From Bdellovibrionales bacterium (GTDB taxonomy: Bacteria > Bdellovibrionota > Bdellovibrionia > Bdellovibrionales > UBA1609), in the NCBI GenBank assembly GCA_965261545.1, contig CBDHDF010000010.1, positions 384,001-448,000 on the forward strand: a stretch of DNA of 64,000 nt. Reading direction: 5' to 3'. The notes beneath the pieces are model-generated. The model had not been told where the DNA came from and searched no databases. It saw nothing but the letters and a program-made list of their open reading frames with translations. Shown here piece after piece: positions 30,598 to 41,215 of this stretch; position 1 is the first letter of the stretch; each line of letters begins with the position of its first letter. The translations under genes and the position numbers were made by a program.

Positions 30598-32311
30598 AAA
30601 AAGGTAACTAGTTTCTGTCCAGAAAGGCCCATTTTTTGTTCTCTGACACTCCCCATTGAGCCTCCCAATGCCTCAATGGGGGAGTGAGAGTTGGAGATTT
30701 GCCACACAAACTCTACAGATTAAGGGGAAAAAGGTCTTTAAGCGACTTGCGCCCTAGTTTTTTCGATTTGAAGACGCACCCCTACCTTTGGAAGATTTTA
30801 GCACCTTCGACCTGGTCCATTGCTGTTATTCCTAATGGATAAATTTAGGTGACAGTTGATAATTCATGTCTTGCCAAGACAACAAAATTATAGGCACAAA
30901 CGGCATTCTTTACATACCTCTTAAAACCATCATGCCCTTTCCAGTAAGCAACTCTCATACCAAAACATCTCTTAAGGAATGAAATAACAGCCTCTATTCC
31001 GGCTCTCCAATTGAGAAGATTTTTAAAGACCCAAGCACTTTTAACCATCTTTAATATTTTCATTCCTTTTTTTTCTGGGAAGCAAACATCTTTAGCCCCC
31101 ATCTCTTTGGCCTCTTCAAGATTTTCTTTTGAAGCAAACCCACCATCTGCACTTACTTTTACAGGGCAAGCCCCATAGGTTTGTGTCACTGAATTCATAA
31201 CTTTTAAAAACATATCAGAGTCTGCGGGGTTGCCATCAGGGATCTGACAATCTAAAATCATGTTGCTTTGCCCTGAGGTCAGAAAGATTTTATGCCCAAA
31301 CTCGACTTCTCTTTGCCCCTTTACAATAATGTCTGTATGCGGTTCAAAGATGGATAGGACCTTTTTTTCAGAAGATACTTTTTTCCCCTCAATAACTCTT
31401 TTTTGAGTTTGAAAGATGATTTTTTCCAGGTAGAAGGCAACATTTTCTAACTGTTTTAGACTCTTTTTCAAAGCATTCATCTTCACACATTTTTGTTCTT
31501 TTTTTATCTTTCTGATGGTATCAGGTAATCCTTTGTTCAATTTGGTAGCGATTTTTAAAAGCTCCTTATAGCAAGGTAGTCTTTCCGCATCATTTTTGGA
31601 ATTATTAATTTTGTAAAGCAAGGTTTTTGCTCTCTTAAGATCTTCTCTTGAAATAAGTCGCCAAAAATCTTTCATGACATTTTTACGAACTTTTTTAAAT
31701 TCTCTTTCTGTAACTCTTATGCAGTCATATAAAAGCGATGCATCCGTTGGATGATGAATATTTGATTTCGTCACTGTACTGTCCAATCTCATTTTCTTAC
31801 ACGGCTCAATCTTTTGATCTCTTGCATCTGAAACTAAAGAGGCGCTAATAATTCCCCAAGTTTCTTCACTTATTTGAACAATCAAGTCCTGTAAGGTGGA
31901 GTGAGCGTAATTTTCTTCCAATTCAAGGCCCAGAAAAGCTCTGGTGGATACTGAATCGACAAGATTAAAGGCTAACGCACGATAGGAAAGACCTCTTATG
32001 GATTTAAGAATAGCCACCTTGAGAACTTGCTCCGATGTCATACCAATATCACCAGAATCTTTCTTTTCTTTAACAAGGTCTTCATGAACCATATGGGCAA
32101 ACTCTGGATGGCGATCAATGATGTTATTAATTTGGGTATATCCGAGTTTCTCAACAGAAAATGGGCCTAATTTCGACGTTGCAGAATTACCGCATTAAAA
32201 ACCAAGAAAATAATTCAATTTCCATGATTTATCCCCCTCATTACTTTACCCATAACAAAACCATGGTTTAATCTCTTAATTTACTTATTGGAAAATAATA
32301 CAGGAGATGCC

Positions 32312-33553
32312 ATGGTCTTGAATAAGTTTATTATAAAGATGTTGAAATTATCATTCTTAAAAGTGACTTGGGTTAAATTTAAAAATCGAAATCAAGAACT
32401 TCACTTAGGGGTTAAACCCCATAAGAATGGCTGCCGCTGTCCTCATTGTGGACGCCGCTGTAAGATACTTAGATGCTTAGAAGAAAGAGTGTGGCGAGAT
32501 ATCGTCGTGTGCGGTACCCCCATTTATTTCCATTATTCTCCGAAGGAAGTTCTGTGTCCCACTCATGGTCGTATTATGGAGAGAATTCCTTGGGCCGACC
32601 ACTTCAGTCGAGTCACCTATCGTCTGGAACTAACAATTCTGACCCTGACCAAGCAGATGACCCAAAAAGCCGTTTCAGAGCTTGTCAAGATACCCACATC
32701 CACCTTATCTGATCTTATTCATCGAATCATCCACAGGGAACGAGATGGTCACAAAATTCGTGGTTTGGAGGTCATTGGAGTCGATGAAATTTCTTATGCT
32801 AAGGGAAGGAAGTTTATTACCTTGATTTACGACATGAAGAAAGGCTGTGTCGTTTGGATTGGAAAAGGTAAGGGTAAGGAGACAATAGACTCCTTTTTTA
32901 CAAAGGAACTCAGCCAATATCAGCGAGACAAAATTAGAGTGGCTTGTTGTGATATGGCTCAAGGCTACATCTCCTCTATCAAGGAGCATTGTAAGAATGC
33001 TACTCTCGTTTTGGACAAATTTCACATTATTCAATCCCTCAACAGGGCTGTGGATGAGGTGAGAAAAGAAATTTGGAGAGATGCCTGCAAGAAGGACAGA
33101 AAGGCTATTAAGGGAACTCGCTGGTTGATAGCCTACAGTTCATCCTCTCGTAGTAAGGCCCAAACTCGTAAAATTAACCTCATGGAGAAATCTAACAATA
33201 AAATATTCAGAGCATGGCTGCTTAAAGATAATTTTGAGCATTTCTGGGATTATGTGAGTCCAGGTCATGCTGCGAATTTTCTGAATGCCTGGATCACTCG
33301 TGCCTTAAGATCACGCATTGATTCTATGAAAAAGTTTGCCTTGATGCTCAGGAAGCACCAAGAAAATATTCTTTCCTTCATTAAAGATCCTGTCACAAAT
33401 GCCAAGGCTGAGGGAATCAATCGCCTTCTAAAGATCATAAAAAATCGGGCTTCAGGATTTAAGAACCTACAGGGTTTTGAGAATATGATTTACTTGTGTG
33501 CTGGGGATTTGGATATTGTTGGAAGTTTCCCCAAGCGTTTTTGTACATTATAG
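32312..33553 (+). CDS. ISL3 transposase, apparently intact
   Basis: CPHC zinc finger, IGVDE, CDM, DKFH, TNAKAEGIN; AGGAG RBS before ATG 32312. Confidence 0.92.
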   Translation: MVLNKFIIKMLKLSFLKVTWVKFKNRNQELHLGVKPHKNGCRCPHCGRRCKILRCLEERVWRDIVVCGTPIYFHYSPKEVLCPTHGRIMERIPWADHFSRVTYRLELTILTLTKQMTQKAVSELVKIPTSTLSDLIHRIIHRERDGHKIRGLEVIGVDEISYAKGRKFITLIYDMKKGCVVWIGKGKGKETIDSFFTKELSQYQRDKIRVACCDMAQGYISSIKEHCKNATLVLDKFHIIQSLNRAVDEVRKEIWRDACKKDRKAIKGTRWLIAYSSSSRSKAQTRKINLMEKSNNKIFRAWLLKDNFEHFWDYVSPGHAANFLNAWITRALRSRIDSMKKFALMLRKHQENILSFIKDPVTNAKAEGINRLLKIIKNRASGFKNLQGFENMIYLCAGDLDIVGSFPKRFCTL

Positions 33554-33621
33554 TTTTTATTGTCGATCAACATTTCTTTTTCCAATTCACCTCCCCATAC
33601 TAACTCCGCCAAGATGAGTCA

Positions 33622-33713
33622 GTTATCCACAGACTCATCCATGGCGACGCTGCGGCTATGGCCCTCGGAGCCACAATAAAGCAGCGCTGCTGTGGGTGAG
33701 TCTTGTGGATAAC
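33622..33713 (+). other. Conserved hairpin with paired DnaA boxes, copy 1 (in ISL3 3' region)
   Basis: Long imperfect inverted repeat; TTATCCACA 33623-33631 and TGTGGATAA 33704-33712; homologous to 36309-36406. Confidence 0.75.
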
Positions 33714-34522
33714 GGCGGCTCTCCACACAAGTGATTTGGTAGCCCTGTCCTCCGTGTTTTTATGTACAAATCTTAGGAATAACCTGTACATCCAGTTTTT
33801 AGCTATTTCCCTAGGGAATTTGGACTTTAGGCTCCGAGAAACTCGGATATAGCCATTAATTTGCTGCAATTCTGTACTGAGTTGGTGGTTAGGATATTGG
33901 GAAAAGAGTCCCAACTGTGTCTTCTTCAAATGGCGCATAGTCCCCCCTTTGGTGAAAGTTTCTCTTTAATTTTTATATTAACATACGTTTTTTTGAGGGA
34001 AAAAAGTGAGCAAGGATGTCTTTTAAGAAGAAAAAAATCAGAGAGGTTCTCGGAGAACATGGATAAGAATTCTACCTCATAGAGAGGTTCCCACGCCTCC
34101 TAAAACCTACATAAAAAATAAATGAAGAATAAAATATCAAAAATTATTTCTCTGAAAAAACACGTCAAGTATTTTTTGAAGTTGATGCGCAACGTAATGT
34201 TATTTCCCTGAAGGAGGTTTGAAATCACCACGGTGGAAACACAGGTTGATCCAACTCTTCCTCTCATATCAAGTAACCAGTTGATAGCCACATAAGTCAC
34301 TGAAAGGGAGGGGCTGTGAAAGGTTCGTCAAGAGAGGGGGGGGAACTTATTTTATTTTTCCGTTTTATGTAAGTAACTGAATTTACACGGATTATGTTTG
34401 ATGGACTCCATTTTAAAGCATAAAATCTAAAGGGAAGGCATGTAAATACTTAAAACTACTTAACTTTCTTCCCTGGACAGGAACTAACTAGTCGCTGTCG
34501 CGAAATAGACTTAAGAAATCCA

Positions 34523-34963
34523 TCATTCAGCTTCAAGGTGGTCTTTTTGATAAATATAATTTTCAATTTGCATAAGATTTTTAAATGGACTCCTCTCCTG
34601 AAGATAGCGAGTAGAGAATTCTGGGTCAAAATGGTTCATTTTACACATATCCATGATGATTTTTGCTTTTGGCCCCACTGTCCTTTTTGATGTGTTGAAG
34701 TGCTCAACAATCTCATCCATGGAAACATATGGTGACGTCTTGCTATCATAAAGAAAGTTAATTCTCCCAATGGCATGAATAATCCCCGCAGCCCAAATTT
34801 CTACTCTTCCTGTCATGTAAGGGACTTGTCTTTTTCGAGACATTCTTGCTACTACACCGTGACAGAGGTTTTTATACTCATCGTTTATATATTGGTCACA
34901 AAAATCACTAATAGCCTTTTCAAGTTCTTTCCTTCTTGGTTGAATGATTTGCTTCTTTTTCAT
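34523..34963 (-). CDS. Passenger protein resembling DUF6398
   Basis: AGGAGG RBS; FCDQYINDEY...RKR..P...G....WAAGIIHAIGRINFLYD pattern recognised from memory; lies inside element B IRs. Confidence 0.65.
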   Translation of the reverse strand: MKKKQIIQPRRKELEKAISDFCDQYINDEYKNLCHGVVARMSRKRQVPYMTGRVEIWAAGIIHAIGRINFLYDSKTSPYVSMDEIVEHFNTSKRTVGPKAKIIMDMCKMNHFDPEFSTRYLQERSPFKNLMQIENYIYQKDHLEAE

Positions 34964-36308
34964 TGGGCCTCCTGTTAACCTTATTACCATGTTTCACCTC
35001 ATGATAAAGGATTATCGCTATGAGTTTATGCCCAGAAGGCCTCGAAACCAAGGTCCACCCTGCCAAGGTATCTATTATCGTCACAGAATCCGATCCTCTG
35101 ATTCAACTGGCCAACCACGTCGATTGGAGCTATCTGTCGTGTCTTGTCATGCCCGACTTAAAAGCCACGACTGCAAAGGGTTTTTGGTGGCTAGGAAGAA
35201 AGCTCTTTTTAAGAGTTCATCTAGCCGTGCTGCTGCTTCAGGTTCTATTCAAACTCACGGATCGAGGGGTGGAGCAACGGATAAAAGAGACGGCCAGTTA
35301 TCAGCTTTTTTGTGGTCTAAATATCCTCAAAAAATGGTGTTGTCCCGATCATACGAAAATAGAAAAATTTCGCAATCGACTGACGGAAGAGACTCACAAA
35401 GAAATAGGAGATTATATTCTTCGCTTGGCTCAATCCCTGGGGTTTGCAGACGCCTCTCATTTGGATGTCGATTCGACCGTTCAGGAAGCCAATATGGCTT
35501 ATCCCTCCGATGCCAGTCTTTTGAAAAAGTTGGCTCAGAAGTGTTACAAAATTCTTTCGTATCTTCAAGAAAAGCAGAAGACCTACTTACCATCGGGTAT
35601 AACCATAGATATCAAAGCCATCATCAAGGCCGCTCGAAAGTATTTTTTTCTAGCCAAAAATTGTGTATTAGAGAAGAAGAGGGAGGTATTTTCAGACCTT
35701 CACAGTCTTGTAAAGTCAGAGTTAAAAGCCTTTATAAGGTTTGCAGAAAATCTTTCTCCACAGGCTCTAGCGAGTCTTCCTTGGAACCACCGAGAAGCCG
35801 TCACAGAAGTGAGAGACAAGGCTTGGAGATACCTTTTGGACGTGGCCCATTTTGTAAGAACTCACACCATCAAGCCTGGCAAAATCCTTGCCTTCAAATT
35901 GTGTGCGGTCGCCTGTATCAAAAAGGGGAAGTTAGGCAAAGACAAGGAGTTTGGGAGGGTCTTCCAAGTCGGGCGGATTGGTGGAAATTTTATTGTTCCC
36001 TATTGTTAGGCGCCAATTAAAATTGGCCATTTTTAGAAGCCGTCGCCAATGAAAAACGGCCAGTTGATGATGTACTGATTTAGTTATTCTTCGTTCAGAG
36101 TTTAGTCAAGTGTCTTTATTTTGCTCATCATTTAACTCGGACTATGCCACAAGATTCTGAGGAATGATTTTCTGCCCACCACTTTTGGCATGACCCCAAA
36201 TGCATCCTTCAGCCCTATGGCAGAGGTAAATGGAGTATTTTTCAGGATTCCTTGGCGCAGCTAATGTCTAAAGCTCCGCGAGAGTGACGAGCAAATAGTA
36301 CGGTAAAA

Positions 36309-36406
36309 GCCAGTTATCCATAAATTTATCCATGGCGACACTGCGGCTGTGACCCCGATGTCTAGCAACGCAGTGCTGCTGTGGATAAATTTTGTGGATA
36401 ACTGGC
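36309..36406 (+). other. Conserved hairpin with DnaA boxes, copy 2 (in IS21, downstream of istB)
   Basis: Imperfect inverted repeat homologous to 33622-33713; TGTGGATAA at 36380-36388 and 36393-36401. Confidence 0.75.
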
Positions 36407-36814
36407 GAGTTCCTTCCCCAAAAGTGGGGATCTCTAATGAACTTCTTTGGTTGAACTTTCCTCTTTGCTCTGTTTAGACTTGGCTTTTGCCGATTCGGTT
36501 CTCCAACTTTCTTTTCCTTCAATGTTGAGGGTTTCACAGTTGTGAATAATTCGATCAACAGCAGCAGCGGTGGTAATAGGGTTAAGAAACACCTTATCCC
36601 ATTCAGAGTAAGTTAAGTTTGTAGTGATCATGAGACTTTTCCTTTCATATCGCTGAGATATGAATTGAAAGAAAAGATCAGCACCCTCTGTGCAGGAAGC
36701 TGTATAGCCAAGTTCATCACAAGCAATAAGATCAAAACGGTCTAATTTCTTAAAAAGAGCATTCAATGAGAGTTCTTTCTTGCTTTCACGCATTGTTTCA
36801 ATAAGTTCATGAGT

Positions 36815-38231
36815 CAATGCCGTTTCCTTAAGCCACCACACCCCTCTGCCTCTGCGTTAAGCTATTTCTTTTAAAAGAACTCCCAGCGCTTTTGATAGAC
36901 CTTTCATAGCTTCTTTTGAAGTGCCTCCTCTTCTCCATTGAAATCTTCATCAGCAACTTTATCTGCTTCCTAAATTTCTGATAGAGCCCCGCAACAAAAA
37001 GAGGGATGCTATCCATTATGAAATCAAGAATCAGTTTAAAGTTAGGTTTTTTGTAGTCATTTTTTACCAACTGATTCACACTGTCTTCATCCTCATTTAT
37101 GCTCATTTGAATCTTTGTATAATTGAAGAGCCAAAAATAAGAATACAGCTCTTGCAATATTCCATTAAGGCTTGTTGAGTGCCACTGCTCCATTTTCATT
37201 GTCGATGTAAAATCACGAAATGTCGTTTCTATTTCCCAACGACGAGAGTAAAGAGCAACCATATCCTTCTTGTCCAAGGAGCCATGCGGAAGATTAGTGG
37301 CCAAAACAGAGAACTCCCCAGTCTTTGGGTTTTTATACTTATAGAGATGAATGACCACCCCCTCAATAACCATTCGTGAATACCAACCTGGGCCATTAAA
37401 TAAATTTACAATGGGGATAAAAGTAGAGCCTCGCTTACAACGCGCAATAAAGAAGTTACTGGCTTGAGCATGGGCCTTAATAATCTCTGTAGATAAATAA
37501 AGCCTATCGTAGAGAGTTATGCTATTACTCTCAAAACTACCTATCATTTGAATAGCATTGGCGATTTCGTTGAGAGCGGGAGAATAGCAAAGATTCTTTG
37601 TCACACCCGATAAAACGTCATAAGCATGAGATAGATACATACGTAAGAAATGAGTTTCCATCTCATTTGGGCAAGGGTACCCACAATAACCCTCCTTTAA
37701 AAGATCTTTAGAGCGAGGAAGTGCTAATTGGTCGCCATCTATGGCATAGATATAAAAACCATGAAACGTTTTTCTCAATGGTTCGTAGTCTGTAATCAGA
37801 GATTCAAAGATATCTTTGAAAAATAGGTAAGAAATACTTTGACGTATCTTGCTGAGACTGCTTTTGACTGGCATGAGAAGCAGGTCACCAAAATGAGTCC
37901 ATACCGTCTTAAGAGCGATTTGGTAGCCTTCGTAATTTGTTCCGGAAATAAGATAGATAATGGTAAAAAAGAAAATTTGAGGATTAAATTTTCGATTCCT
38001 TTTTTGTTTTTCTGGATCGACAAGGTGCTCTGGCTTGAAGGAAGAATCAAGTTTTGGTAGAATAAAATGGTCATCTGTGACGCGAACTCGTCATTTGGGG
38101 GCTTTCGAGATCAATATTGGATTGCATGTGACTTACTCCTTGGTTGAGGGTTGGGTGTAAAATAAAACAAGTCTTATTCTTGTCGATTTATCTAATGATT
38201 TCAAGAGATTTTTCTTAAGGAAACGGCATTG
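36815..38231 (-). mobile_element. IS4-family insertion sequence, 1417 bp
   Basis: Perfect 18-bp IRs CAATGCCGTTTCCTTAAG; 10-bp DR GTTCATGAGT at 36805-36814 and 38232-38241. Confidence 0.94.
36828..38090 (-). CDS. IS4 transposase; 5' end out of frame with the RBS-linked ATG at 38127
   Basis: AIDG, YDRLY, YSRRWEIETTFRDF; frame open from 38090 although the first in-frame ATG is 37874; stop codon lies in the IR. Confidence 0.8.
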   Translation of the reverse strand, partial: RVRVTDDHFILPKLDSSFKPEHLVDPEKQKRNRKFNPQIFFFTIIYLISGTNYEGYQIALKTVWTHFGDLLLMPVKSSLSKIRQSISYLFFKDIFESLITDYEPLRKTFHGFYIYAIDGDQLALPRSKDLLKEGYCGYPCPNEMETHFLRMYLSHAYDVLSGVTKNLCYSPALNEIANAIQMIGSFESNSITLYDRLYLSTEIIKAHAQASNFFIARCKRGSTFIPIVNLFNGPGWYSRMVIEGVVIHLYKYKNPKTGEFSVLATNLPHGSLDKKDMVALYSRRWEIETTFRDFTSTMKMEQWHSTSLNGILQELYSYFWLFNYTKIQMSINEDEDSVNQLVKNDYKKPNFKLILDFIMDSIPLFVAGLYQKFRKQIKLLMKISMEKRRHFKRSYERSIKSAGSSFKRNSLTQRQRGVVA

Positions 38232-38642
38232 GTTCATGAGTGGTGACCCATAAACATCGATAGCCTTGTTCACAGAGTGAACGAACTAGGGACATGGCCA
38301 AATGACTTTTCCCCATTCCAAAGCTTCCGTAAAACACAACATTACAGGCTTTTCTGACCCACTCTCCCTCTGCCATCCAATTAATTTGCTGAGCTGTCAC
38401 TCCCGTTCTTTTCTGGAAGTTATAAGTTTGGAGTGATTTAAGTTGAGGAAGCTTGGCCCCCTTAAGCAATCTTTTCACTCTCTGGGAATGCTTGTCAGCA
38501 AGCTCATTTTGAACGAGTATACCTAAATACTGTTCATACGTCTTTTTTGTTTTTTCGGCAACTCTAGCCGTTGCAACATATTCATCCGCCATCGCTGGAA
38601 GTCGGAGTTTTTTAAGAGAACCTATAAGTTCTTCGTGATTCA

Positions 38643-40109
38643 TTAAGAACCTCCTATGTTTGGAACAAGACTGTCATATTGAGACAATCTAGGTTGAAGT
38701 GGTTTTTGTTGGTCATTCAAATTAATTTTGGTGGGATTGCCTAAGAGCAAATCTTTTATGGATTTAAAGTCGAAAATCTCACGACTTTCTAATTGAAGCT
38801 CCATGGCTGTAGATAAGTCCTGCCAACTCACATGCTGAATCAAGTTGATAACTCTTAAATATTCATGCTCGGCACGGCTTGAATCTTGTTGCTTGAGGTA
38901 TTGATAAAAATTTTCAAACACATTTGTTGGAAAAAGAATGGATCGGTGAGCCCATCTTACCATGGCTTGCGGCTTACGAACTAAAGAGGGAAGGATATGT
39001 TCAAGAAGAAGACTATGCTCCCCATCAGGTTTTCTTTGATGGCGAGCGACAATTTCTTGCTTCCCTCCTGCACGATAGATCGTGACATGATAGGGACCCT
39101 GTACGGTTTTACAGGGAGATTGGATCACCTCATCAGGTATGGAATATGTGGTTTTACCTATTCTCAAAGTCCCATAACCATTACTTTGACAAATATTCAC
39201 CTTACAGAGAATATCTTCATCTCGTGGAGGCAAAGGCTTAAGAACTTTGGCCTCCTCCTCAAAGCGAGATTTGGTGGAGTCACTCTGATGCTGATCCATA
39301 TAAGACTCTAAAAACTGATTCAAATGATCCCAGTCTTTAAAAACAATTCCTTTGTTTCTAACAATATTTTTTATCCGAGAACTGAAGGTTCGAATATCAC
39401 GCTCCACATCTCCCTTGTCAGAGCCCTTCCCTGCGCGGCAGGGAAGAACCTTAAATCCATAGTATTGGATGGCTCGATCAAAAGATTGGGTGTAAATTCG
39501 CTGATTTCCTTTAAGAACTTTCTTCACACAGGGAGATAAATTATCAATACGGATGTTCGCACTCATCCCACCTATCTTTTCAAAAAAAGCATGCACCCCA
39601 TCGATGAAACACTCATAGACAAGAAAGGGGTAGGCACGAACCCAACAGGTGCCACTACAAGGCAATGTTCCAAAATGGAGATGAACGATCTGAACACCAT
39701 CGGCAAATGGTAAAGCAACCTTCTCCTTAAAATCAAACTGAGCCTGTTCTCCAGGATCATATCTTTGGCTGAAAAAACGCTCCTTGGGGCGAGAACCAAG
39801 AATCTCACAAACTCTTCTCTGAACCGTTCTCTCACTCCCACGATAACCCTCCTCAACTAATAGCTCATATATTTCACGGGCGGTGTTACTTGGGTTCAAC
39901 TTCAAAAAGTACTTCACCCGATCCATATATCCATTAAGGGGATCTGGGCGAGTTCTTTTGGACCTCGCCTTGTACTTCGGTGGGGTGTTGGACTCACAGT
40001 ACTTGCGCACCGTCTTACGATTGATCCCTAATTCACGAGATATTTCTGTCTTATTTTTACCACTGTGACTCAGGTCACGAATGCGGCCGAAAGTGTATTG
40101 ACTAATCAT
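38643..40109 (-). CDS. istA: IstA transposase (IS21 family)
   Basis: HTH EISRELGINRKTVRKY, PGEQAQFDF, DN, KGDVER; AGGAGG RBS before ATG 40109. Confidence 0.92.
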   Translation of the reverse strand: MISQYTFGRIRDLSHSGKNKTEISRELGINRKTVRKYCESNTPPKYKARSKRTRPDPLNGYMDRVKYFLKLNPSNTAREIYELLVEEGYRGSERTVQRRVCEILGSRPKERFFSQRYDPGEQAQFDFKEKVALPFADGVQIVHLHFGTLPCSGTCWVRAYPFLVYECFIDGVHAFFEKIGGMSANIRIDNLSPCVKKVLKGNQRIYTQSFDRAIQYYGFKVLPCRAGKGSDKGDVERDIRTFSSRIKNIVRNKGIVFKDWDHLNQFLESYMDQHQSDSTKSRFEEEAKVLKPLPPRDEDILCKVNICQSNGYGTLRIGKTTYSIPDEVIQSPCKTVQGPYHVTIYRAGGKQEIVARHQRKPDGEHSLLLEHILPSLVRKPQAMVRWAHRSILFPTNVFENFYQYLKQQDSSRAEHEYLRVINLIQHVSWQDLSTAMELQLESREIFDFKSIKDLLLGNPTKINLNDQQKPLQPRLSQYDSLVPNIGGS

Positions 40110-40234
40110 AAGATCCTCCTCATTGCTAACCTTTTGAGTTGCAAAAGGGAGGGACTCTGTGAGCTTAGTATCTATATCAGAAGAAGAGACTTCATTGTCT
40201 AGTATTTGAACACTCCCTGAAGATTGGTCACTTT

Positions 40235-40609
40235 TCATTGGCGACAACCTCCATATTGAAAGTGGGACATTTTAATTGGCGACGGCTTTAAGGGAAGCCT
40301 GTCTTCAGAAAGAAATTCCATGAAAATTGAGGCAAATGTTGGAATCTTGTGGAATTTAAATACTTTAGAAAATGGGCACAGCCTAAACAGGCTTTTCTTG
40401 ACTATATATTTAACCTCATTGAAATCCAGAAACAGTCTACAAAGGAGAAATATGGAACCTGAATAGGCTGTCATGGAAGGACTCTCCAACACGGAGCCCC
40501 TTTCCAGGTCGACAAGAACCCAAAAGGAGTTCTTATCAGCTCGGAGCCTTTTTATGAGTAATATCAATTGATTATATGCGTCTCGGTTGACAATGCCAAA
40601 AATCACCAT
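40235..40609 (-). CDS. Possible passenger ORF inside the IS21 left end
   Basis: 124 codons with GAGGAGG RBS; no recognisable domain; 3' end overlaps subterminal repeats. Confidence 0.3.
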   Translation of the reverse strand: MVIFGIVNRDAYNQLILLIKRLRADKNSFWVLVDLERGSVLESPSMTAYSGSIFLLCRLFLDFNEVKYIVKKSLFRLCPFSKVFKFHKIPTFASIFMEFLSEDRLPLKPSPIKMSHFQYGGCRQ

Positions 40610-41215
40610 AGGTCCTCCTCTGAAAAGTGGCCACTTTTCATTGGCGACGGTGGGGCATTTTAATTGTCAGCTAACACCTATACTTGCACTTCTGTGAGAA
40701 TGGACGACAAGGAGTCATTGCCAGCTATATTGGAAGAACATCAAAAAATATTTGGCGAAGATATTTTAGAGTCAGTTACAACAGACAAGGGGTATTATTC
40801 ACAAGCCAACGTCAATCTCGTCAAAGATGTTGTGGGAAATGCAGATGGAATTCAAAGACCTGCCAACGTAAAAGAACAGGTCGAAGCCCCCCAGAAAGAA
40901 GAATTATACAATCGCAGGTCGGGGGTCGAACCTCTCATAGGGCATGTCAAAAACTTTGGATTAGCAAGAAGCAAGATGAAAGGGGATGGGGCCACACTGG
41001 CTTCGGGGTATCGCTCGACCATGGGGTTCAATCTGCACCAAATTATGAGAAATTTAGCGGTGACGATGCCAACTCCAAGCTTCAAGGGTGGGTAGAACAA
41101 GGGAAAGTTAAAAAGAGGCTACTTCAGAGCCCAAGTCCAAATGAGGGCACATAAACGGCCCTTTTTAATTTCGCGACAGCGACTAACTACTCCCGATCTG
41201 AATATTTGAAGGCAT

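Follow-up and report, generated by a model that had tools for sequence, protein, structure and literature searches.

A DnaA-box hairpin acquired by IS21, ISL3 and IS110 insertion sequences in a Bdellovibrionales genome, and its candidate role in their replication

In this study, we observed that a 95-base hairpin with a 33-pair stem and DnaA boxes at its base is carried by four types of insertion sequence (IS) in the genome of a Bdellovibrionales bacterium, namely an ISL3, an IS110 and two unrelated IS21 elements (referred to as IS21-A and IS21-C), and that it is an acquired insert in all of them. A preliminary description, based on the two copies found in a window of 64,000 nucleotides (contig CBDHDF010000010.1, positions 384,001 to 448,000), had proposed a portable module swapped between the ISL3 and IS21 families; this proposal is borne out and widened here to IS110 and to a second IS21, with relatives of these elements lacking the hairpin. 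The module is real and wider than first described, and so far restricted to one organism. It is a new arrangement built from known parts, and the replication role that we infer for it is testable. The features of the two copies and their carriers are as follows, in coordinates of the window.

32134..33854, + strand: ISL3-family element with hairpin copy 1 (IR arms 32133-32152/33836-33855; DDE_Tnp_ISL3)
32288..33553, + strand: ISL3 transposase ORF
33554..33854, + strand: 3' tail of the ISL3, 301 bp; the tails of relatives are about 230 bp shorter
33596..33773, + strand: block common to the ISL3 and IS110 3' non-coding regions, 84% identity (hairpin with about 25 bp before and about 55 bp after it)
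33622..33713, + strand: copy 1 of the hairpin, inside the ISL3, with 33 stem pairs (variant B)
33623..33631, + strand: outer left DnaA box of copy 1, perfect consensus match
33635..33643, + strand: inner left box-like 9-mer of copy 1, three mismatches, 3 nt off the outer box
33691..33699, - strand: inner right box-like 9-mer of copy 1, two mismatches
33704..33712, - strand: outer right DnaA box of copy 1, perfect consensus, folded partner of the outer left box
36004..40676, - strand: IS21-family element A (IS21-A) with hairpin copy 2
36004..36065, no strand assigned: right-end repeats of IS21-A
36309..36406, + strand: hairpin copy 2 (variant A), antisense to istB
36314..36322, + strand: outer left box of copy 2, one mismatch, which is a G.T pair in the + fold
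36367..36382, + strand: site in copy 2 targeted by an ORF-less group II intron of 647 nt, here empty
36380..36401, - strand: two perfect DnaA boxes in tandem in copy 2 (36380-36388 and 36393-36401), 4 nt apart
38215-38643 plus 36434-36841, - strand: istB of IS21-A, interrupted by an IS4 (about 36815-38231)
38643-40247, - strand: istA of IS21-A

Counting those that are nearly complete, the genome has 16 copies of the window ISL3. IS21-A sits in an IS5/ISNCY-type transposase gene, and the window ISL3 likewise in an IS5/ISNCY-type element; altogether, five nested ISs occupy 10 kb of the window (30845-41194). A second set of end repeats was noticed about 400 bp inside the left end of IS21-A (40217-40290 and 40620-40676), and the two left-end sets bracket an ORF of 124 aa with no Pfam match.

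The earlier positions of both copies were reproduced, at 68 bp past the ISL3 stop and 27 bp past the istB stop, as was the difference of 5/33 between their right arms, and the difference of 6/41 between their left arms is true for 33620-33660, with two other alignment offsets giving 7. Four G-C/A-T double changes were confirmed at columns 24/94, 26/92, 28/90 and 41/77 of the alignment, in which the wobble-compatible single changes, the three common G.T pairs and the A.C mismatch were all seen as well. One bulged T per 3' arm had also been described for the window copies; as a general feature it does not hold, being lacking in two of the five variants found in the genome. The stem-base boxes are as first described, with a perfect pair in copy 1, and a one-mismatch left box together with a second perfect box in copy 2. 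A further, degenerate inner pair of box-like 9-mers is harbored by the hairpin, with 0-3 mismatches across variants. An alternative hairpin of 6-8 pairs, which loops out the outer left DnaA box (window 33614-33640), was seen in the ISL3 and IS110 variants only and is absent in the IS21 variants. Folding of the + strand was said to be favoured, and it indeed has the lower energy in all five variants, though by just 0.7-3.5 kcal/mol as DNA. As originally noticed, this better-folding strand is the sense strand of ISL3 but the antisense strand of the window IS21; it is likewise antisense in the second IS21 and in IS110, a distribution which fits a role as DNA rather than as mRNA.

A BLAST census of the 4.3-Mb genome disclosed 110 hairpin loci, distributed as 64 in IS21-A (three of them the right halves of intron-split copies), 18 in IS21-C, 25 in ISL3 or ISL3-tail remnants and 3 in IS110. 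Tallied by IS family, 110/110 loci are tied to ISs. No copy stands free in the genome; the three that lack a long repeated flank are remnants of ISL3 tails. The hairpins fall into five variants, 75-91% alike and each uniform within its own IS, and they always lie within 27-81 bp of a stop codon. The two IS21 carriers share only 25% identity in IstB. About 30 IS types were recognized in this genome, 37% of whose bases lie in repeats of at least three copies, and the same hairpin variants are present in contigs of DNA runs from three studies.

The genome contains 298 perfect DnaA boxes, of which 202 lie in the hairpins, compared with 48 expected genome-wide from base composition. The outer box pair follows the consensus at 17/18 aligned positions, and each variant, A included, harbors exactly two perfect duplex boxes. 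In the folded stem, a fully paired box is formed in variants B, C, D and E, whereas variant A, the commonest with 64 loci, has a G.T or C.A pair; judging from its boxes, variant A would be a better duplex site than hairpin site. The host dnaA is intact with a Bac_DnaA_C domain, and the dnaA-dnaN origin-like region displays the same box consensus, with tandem boxes at the 3-4 nt spacing of the hairpin arms; PriA, DciA and SbcD are also encoded. Perfect boxes were seen elsewhere in ISs: IS1634 (38-39 copies; G000:C6:173520-175181, L325) carries one over its stop codon, in a small hairpin, and accounts for 38 more of the 298, and the hairpin-bearing IS110 has a further one upstream of its gene.

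Comparison of the variants showed that the stem is kept while the flanks and loop drift. Between the ISL3 siblings, differences amount to 3/68 in the arms, 5/25 in the loop and 54/204 in the flanks (arms versus flanks, p=3e-5), and between ISL3 and IS110 to 3/68 in the arms and 14/79 in the flanks (p=0.018); IS110 and the sibling ISL3 remnant differ at 4/68 and 11/82 positions, respectively (p=0.17), with no arm excess. Across the variants, 99.4% of the cells of the 33-pair stem are paired. Four stem pairs changed on both sides and four on one side, the latter all to or from G.T on the + strand, and the 41/77 double change is found in one member of each lineage; this covariation comes from five related variants of one genome, too few for a formal covariation test. 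Folding z-scores range from -4.9 to -11.1 against dinucleotide shuffles, for both strands and with RNA or DNA parameters. Conversion between copies could mimic the apparent conservation of the arms, and a mosaic copy, described below, shows that they can be homogenised in this way.

The hairpin was recognized as an acquired insert because the tails of ISL3 relatives are far shorter and the IS21 and IS110 relatives are without it. The ISL3 sample consisted of the best 80 of 551 metagenome loci, at 49-67% identity, 72 of which show the right end; 70 of these 72 have 59-80 bp from stop to end, against 301 bp in the window ISL3, a comparison that covers relatives at 49-67%, the nearest ISL3 proteins being 78-85% identical. 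The other two have tails of 261 and 354 bp with different hairpins. Similarly, the hairpin is absent from 12/12 IS21 tails, including those of a 55% relative of IS21-A and a 52% relative of IS21-C, and from 5/5 tails of IS110 relatives; in the 50% IS110 relative, a shared motif lies 458 bp from the stop as against 763 bp here, that is, about 305 bp nearer. Some other tails are of interest in their own right. The two ISL3 tails, lengthened independently (L166:1419-1780, L183:1788-2050), hold long hairpins without DnaA boxes, their inserts gave no convincing match to plasmids, and a strong hairpin was also seen in the tail of an IS110 relative (L317). IS tails may therefore pick up hairpins repeatedly.

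As shown by the unequal shared blocks, embedded IS ends and IS21 mosaic, the hairpin spread through nested insertion, deletion and recombination among elements resident in the same genome, rich as this is in multi-copy repeats, and not by self-mobility. Taken by pair, the hairpin only is shared among IS21-A, IS21-C and ISL3, about 180 bp are shared by ISL3 and IS110, and a 355-bp block occurs in a chimera which, at three loci, joins an IS21-A end to the final 355 bp of ISL3. The hairpins of the two IS21s are 91% identical with unalignable flanks, and the IS21-C tail holds an A-type terminal repeat about 100 bp off the hairpin, well inside the own end of IS21-C. The mosaic copy combines the IS21-A upstream flank with the exact IS21-C hairpin (0/73 differences to C, 7 to A). 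At the chimera loci (G000:C10:250246, C10:111673 and C11:121617), which are 80-94% alike, an XRE-like gene (204-211 aa) is followed by the fusion; one locus adjoins a tRNA-like sequence and one a tyrosine-integrase-like ORF.

Searches for homologues covered samples of genomes, many of them incomplete. BLAST against 400 genomes of the phylum gave seven short matches at chance level and no homologue, the four-box pattern had no match in 300 phylum genomes, and the relaxed stem pattern had none in metagenome contigs; plasmids, queried with each copy, and phages yielded no homologue either. A covariance model run on overlapping samples of 150 genomes of the order, 150 of the phylum and 5 chosen ones returned three weak matches (one in an origin region, one to a pair of boxes within recF and one to a hairpin lacking boxes) and no homologue, and weak matches at 2 of 45 fetched loci. 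Comparison with Rfam produced only chance matches to microRNA hairpins (E 3-8), with no family gathering threshold reached. The ISL3 protein matched one distant locus in all-species genomes, and single-protein scans of viral sequences found nothing. Among viral contigs, the pattern matched clusters of DnaA boxes or hairpins unrelated to this one. That IS tails widely carry a hairpin with inward-facing boxes could not be shown: none of the 10 viral loci lies beside a transposase (27 ORFs scanned), and plasmids gave no match. On the viral side, contigs L289 (1975-2060) and L296 have a long hairpin with four box-like 9-mers in opposite (inward) order, with a weak RepL-like ORF some 650 bp away, and many phage contigs among the matches listed (L008-L128) display dense DnaA-box clusters with an extended 11-base consensus. 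The full-text literature searched, subscription journals aside, describes no DnaA-box hairpin common to IS families.

The hairpin also serves as a landing site of another element. The 647-nt ORF-less group II intron has seven 5' ends in the genome, all within ISs (G000:C2:47275-47908, L003, L007), with five in the hairpin 3' arm and two in terminal repeats of IS1634; the insertion point in other copies corresponds to that between 36381 and 36382, and the target of 16-17 nt hardly differs between the hairpin arm and both IS1634 ends. A hairpin-reading intron of class IIC, compared by the class features in the consulted sections of PMC8643678 and PMC3753933, was rejected owing to EBS1-/EBS2-like matches to the target and to the same target at 75 hairpin-free IS1634 ends. 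Because of these exon-binding-site matches and IS1634 targets, the intron is no evidence that the hairpin folds. The 5' end of a second, different group II intron, whose start we take to be IIC-like, was found at the junction of loop and 3' arm of an ISL3-type hairpin (G000:C10:111604, L004).

With regard to IS types, the hairpin is carried by 4/11 circle-forming types and by 0/14 others (Fisher p=0.026), the acquisitions not being independent. This tally derives from 54 multi-copy ORF clusters, with 38 proteins annotated as one set and others separately; it disregards recombinases, host genes and four clusters of no assigned class. ISKra4 and IS481 were added to the circle-forming types. The remaining nine of the 11 follow the list in the part consulted of bioRxiv 2023.06.07.543989. 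Seven circle-forming types are without the hairpin; among them are IS256 with 63 copies, an IS110 with 30 and two further IS21s. Copy number does not track carriage, the hairpin-bearing IS110 having 3 copies only. Orientation displayed no bias relative to local GC skew (32/69 and 46/83), the skew being patchy in this rearranged genome.

We tentatively propose that the hairpin is a candidate DnaA-loading DNA structure which aids IS replication and travels as a passenger module of IS 3' non-coding tails, a reading that we regard as possible and still short of probable. The arms would fold whenever an IS strand is left single-stranded, be it during copy-out or on the circle, and a double-stranded DnaA box would be rebuilt at the stem base. 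DnaA at this rebuilt box could then bring in the replicative helicase and the primase, in the manner of the ABC-primosome A site, and the circular intermediate would be completed faster; such faster completion would lead unrelated circle-forming ISs to retain the hairpin in either orientation. The A site is said to have been described by Masai in 1990 as a DnaA-box hairpin on single-stranded DNA. The loading of a helicase by a DnaA box in a single-stranded hairpin has a precedent in the consulted part of PMC6127211, and by analogy an ABC-type priming signal is plausible. This priming reading is weakened since variant A is without a fully paired box, the host has DciA and PriA, and no orientation bias is seen; with PriA and DciA available a DnaA route is not needed, and it would differ from the DnaC-based system of E. 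coli. Circles of IS110 arise by recombination, with no obvious priming need in that family. The mismatched inner boxes, the seven circle-forming types that thrive without the hairpin, the dependence among the four acquisitions and the lack of a homologue outside the organism among the genomes searched also count against priming. A more far-reaching version, in which a portable DnaA-priming cassette of circle-forming IS21, ISL3 and IS110 elements would load the replisome on the single-stranded intermediate, be the first cis-acting replication signal of copy-out transposition, and, with two thirds of the perfect DnaA boxes of the cell lying in these hairpins, turn IS expansion into a DnaA sink acting on host initiation, is somewhat unlikely.

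Several known systems resemble this hairpin in part. Like the A site of the ABC primosome, it would have a consensus DnaA box rebuilt in a single-strand hairpin stem, fully paired in four of its five variants; as compared with the text consulted in PMC6127211, it differs by its 33-pair stem, its second, degenerate box pair, its place in chromosomal ISs and not in a replicon, a host with DciA, and the imperfect box duplex of its commonest variant. The outer end of Tn5/IS50 also gives an IS a host DnaA site, though that element moves by cut and paste and, according to the sections consulted in PMC3347997, its single box overlaps with the 19-bp end to which the transposase binds. The present paired boxes belong to a hairpin of their own, 140-300 bp inward from the end, and are common to several families. 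REP/BIME and TIRYT repeats and the subterminal hairpins of IS200/IS605 (Y1 HUH) are similarly repeated, imperfect hairpins with strand asymmetry that are targeted by other mobile elements (PMC6006769, as consulted in part). REPs are 21-65 nt, and the present hairpin is longer and never free in intergenic DNA, and TIRYT repeats, as far as the consulted part of that source goes, do not resemble DnaA boxes, unlike the present hairpin. An intact Y1 HUH transposase, as is cognate to REP, TIRYT and PATE repeats, was not found in the genome, which has four fragmentary Y1 matches, none with an adjoining hairpin. The non-coding region of IS110/IS1111 that gives the seek/bridge RNA is comparable by position, since the IS110 carrier has the present hairpin in its 3' non-coding region; the sections consulted of PMC11187229 mention neither DnaA nor a hairpin. 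The present hairpin differs in being an extra insert, absent from the 50% relative and found also in DDE-type ISs, and its absence from 5/5 relatives rules it out as a part of the conserved seek/bridge RNA.

Somewhat unlikely, in our estimation, is that the hairpin is a functionless or selfish hitch-hiker, which arose when an origin-like fragment with two boxes was duplicated in inverted orientation. Such a fragile palindrome would be cut in replication and repaired from other copies; gene conversion would then spread and homogenise it across ISs, and arm-to-arm correction would yield the seemingly compensatory changes. This agrees with the mosaic of IS21-A flank and exact IS21-C hairpin, with the chimeric relics (the A-type IR in the IS21-C tail and the fusions of IS21-A end and ISL3 tail), with SbcD and the large repeat content of the genome, with the occurrence so far in one organism, and with the weak model matches in relatives, which are origin-region box pairs. 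However, the five variants persist and are uniform per IS, indicating that conversion is not wiping out their differences; the loops diverge where the arms hold, and the mismatches (six G.T and one A.C on the + strand) are kept instead of being corrected to a perfect palindrome. A potentially fragile palindrome has, moreover, been retained four separate times.

We consider it unlikely that the convergent, tandem boxes act in double-stranded DNA, with bound DnaA blocking transcription that reads into or out of the IS at its 3' end or tying transposition to the cell cycle in the way of the Tn5/IS50 outer end, and with the symmetry reflecting two facing binding sites. This reading would draw on the two perfect duplex boxes of every variant, on a tandem spacing equal to that of the host origin, on the perfect boxes that occur without the hairpin in other ISs (38 at the IS1634 stop codon and one upstream of the IS110 gene), and on the DnaA site in Tn5 ends reported in the consulted part of PMC3347997. 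It leaves unexplained the compensatory changes in the spacers and in the box-free inner stem, and the boxes lie outside the transposase-binding repeat.

A function as RNA, whether a 3' stabilising or terminating hairpin of the transposase mRNA or a small antisense RNA, appears quite improbable. The constant nearness to a stop codon, the G.U-type wobbles favouring one strand and the strong RNA folding energies would suit it, whereas the favoured strand is sense in one carrier and antisense in three, no conserved U tract or promoter rises above shuffle level, Rfam has no match, and the DnaA boxes lack an RNA rationale. As for a Rho-independent terminator, the full stem gave no call in either copy, and at most 4 T follow variant A, on the minus strand.

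Very improbable and largely refuted is a self-mobile mini-element (a REP, MITE or attC-like cassette) targeting IS tails, as the preliminary description had entertained: the hairpin alone is common to the IS21 pair and to IS21/ISL3, as it would be for such an element, but free copies are absent, no common ends or target duplication exist, the shared block extends over about 100, 180 or 355 bp by pair, which also rejects a MITE, the Y1 transposase fragments of the genome are all broken, and the GTT ... AAC order on both strands is opposite to the attC consensus (RYYYAAC ... GTTRRRY), which rules out an integron attC.

The link of the copy-out step of circle-forming ISs to the host replication machinery is poorly defined. 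The candidate DnaA-loading hairpin is present in some members of these families and missing in close relatives, which offers a plus/minus test across three transposase chemistries. Even without a replication role, it is a structured non-coding block that moves between IS21, ISL3 and IS110 elements, with the relics of recombination still visible, and the expansion of its carriers multiplies the perfect DnaA boxes of the cell about fivefold.
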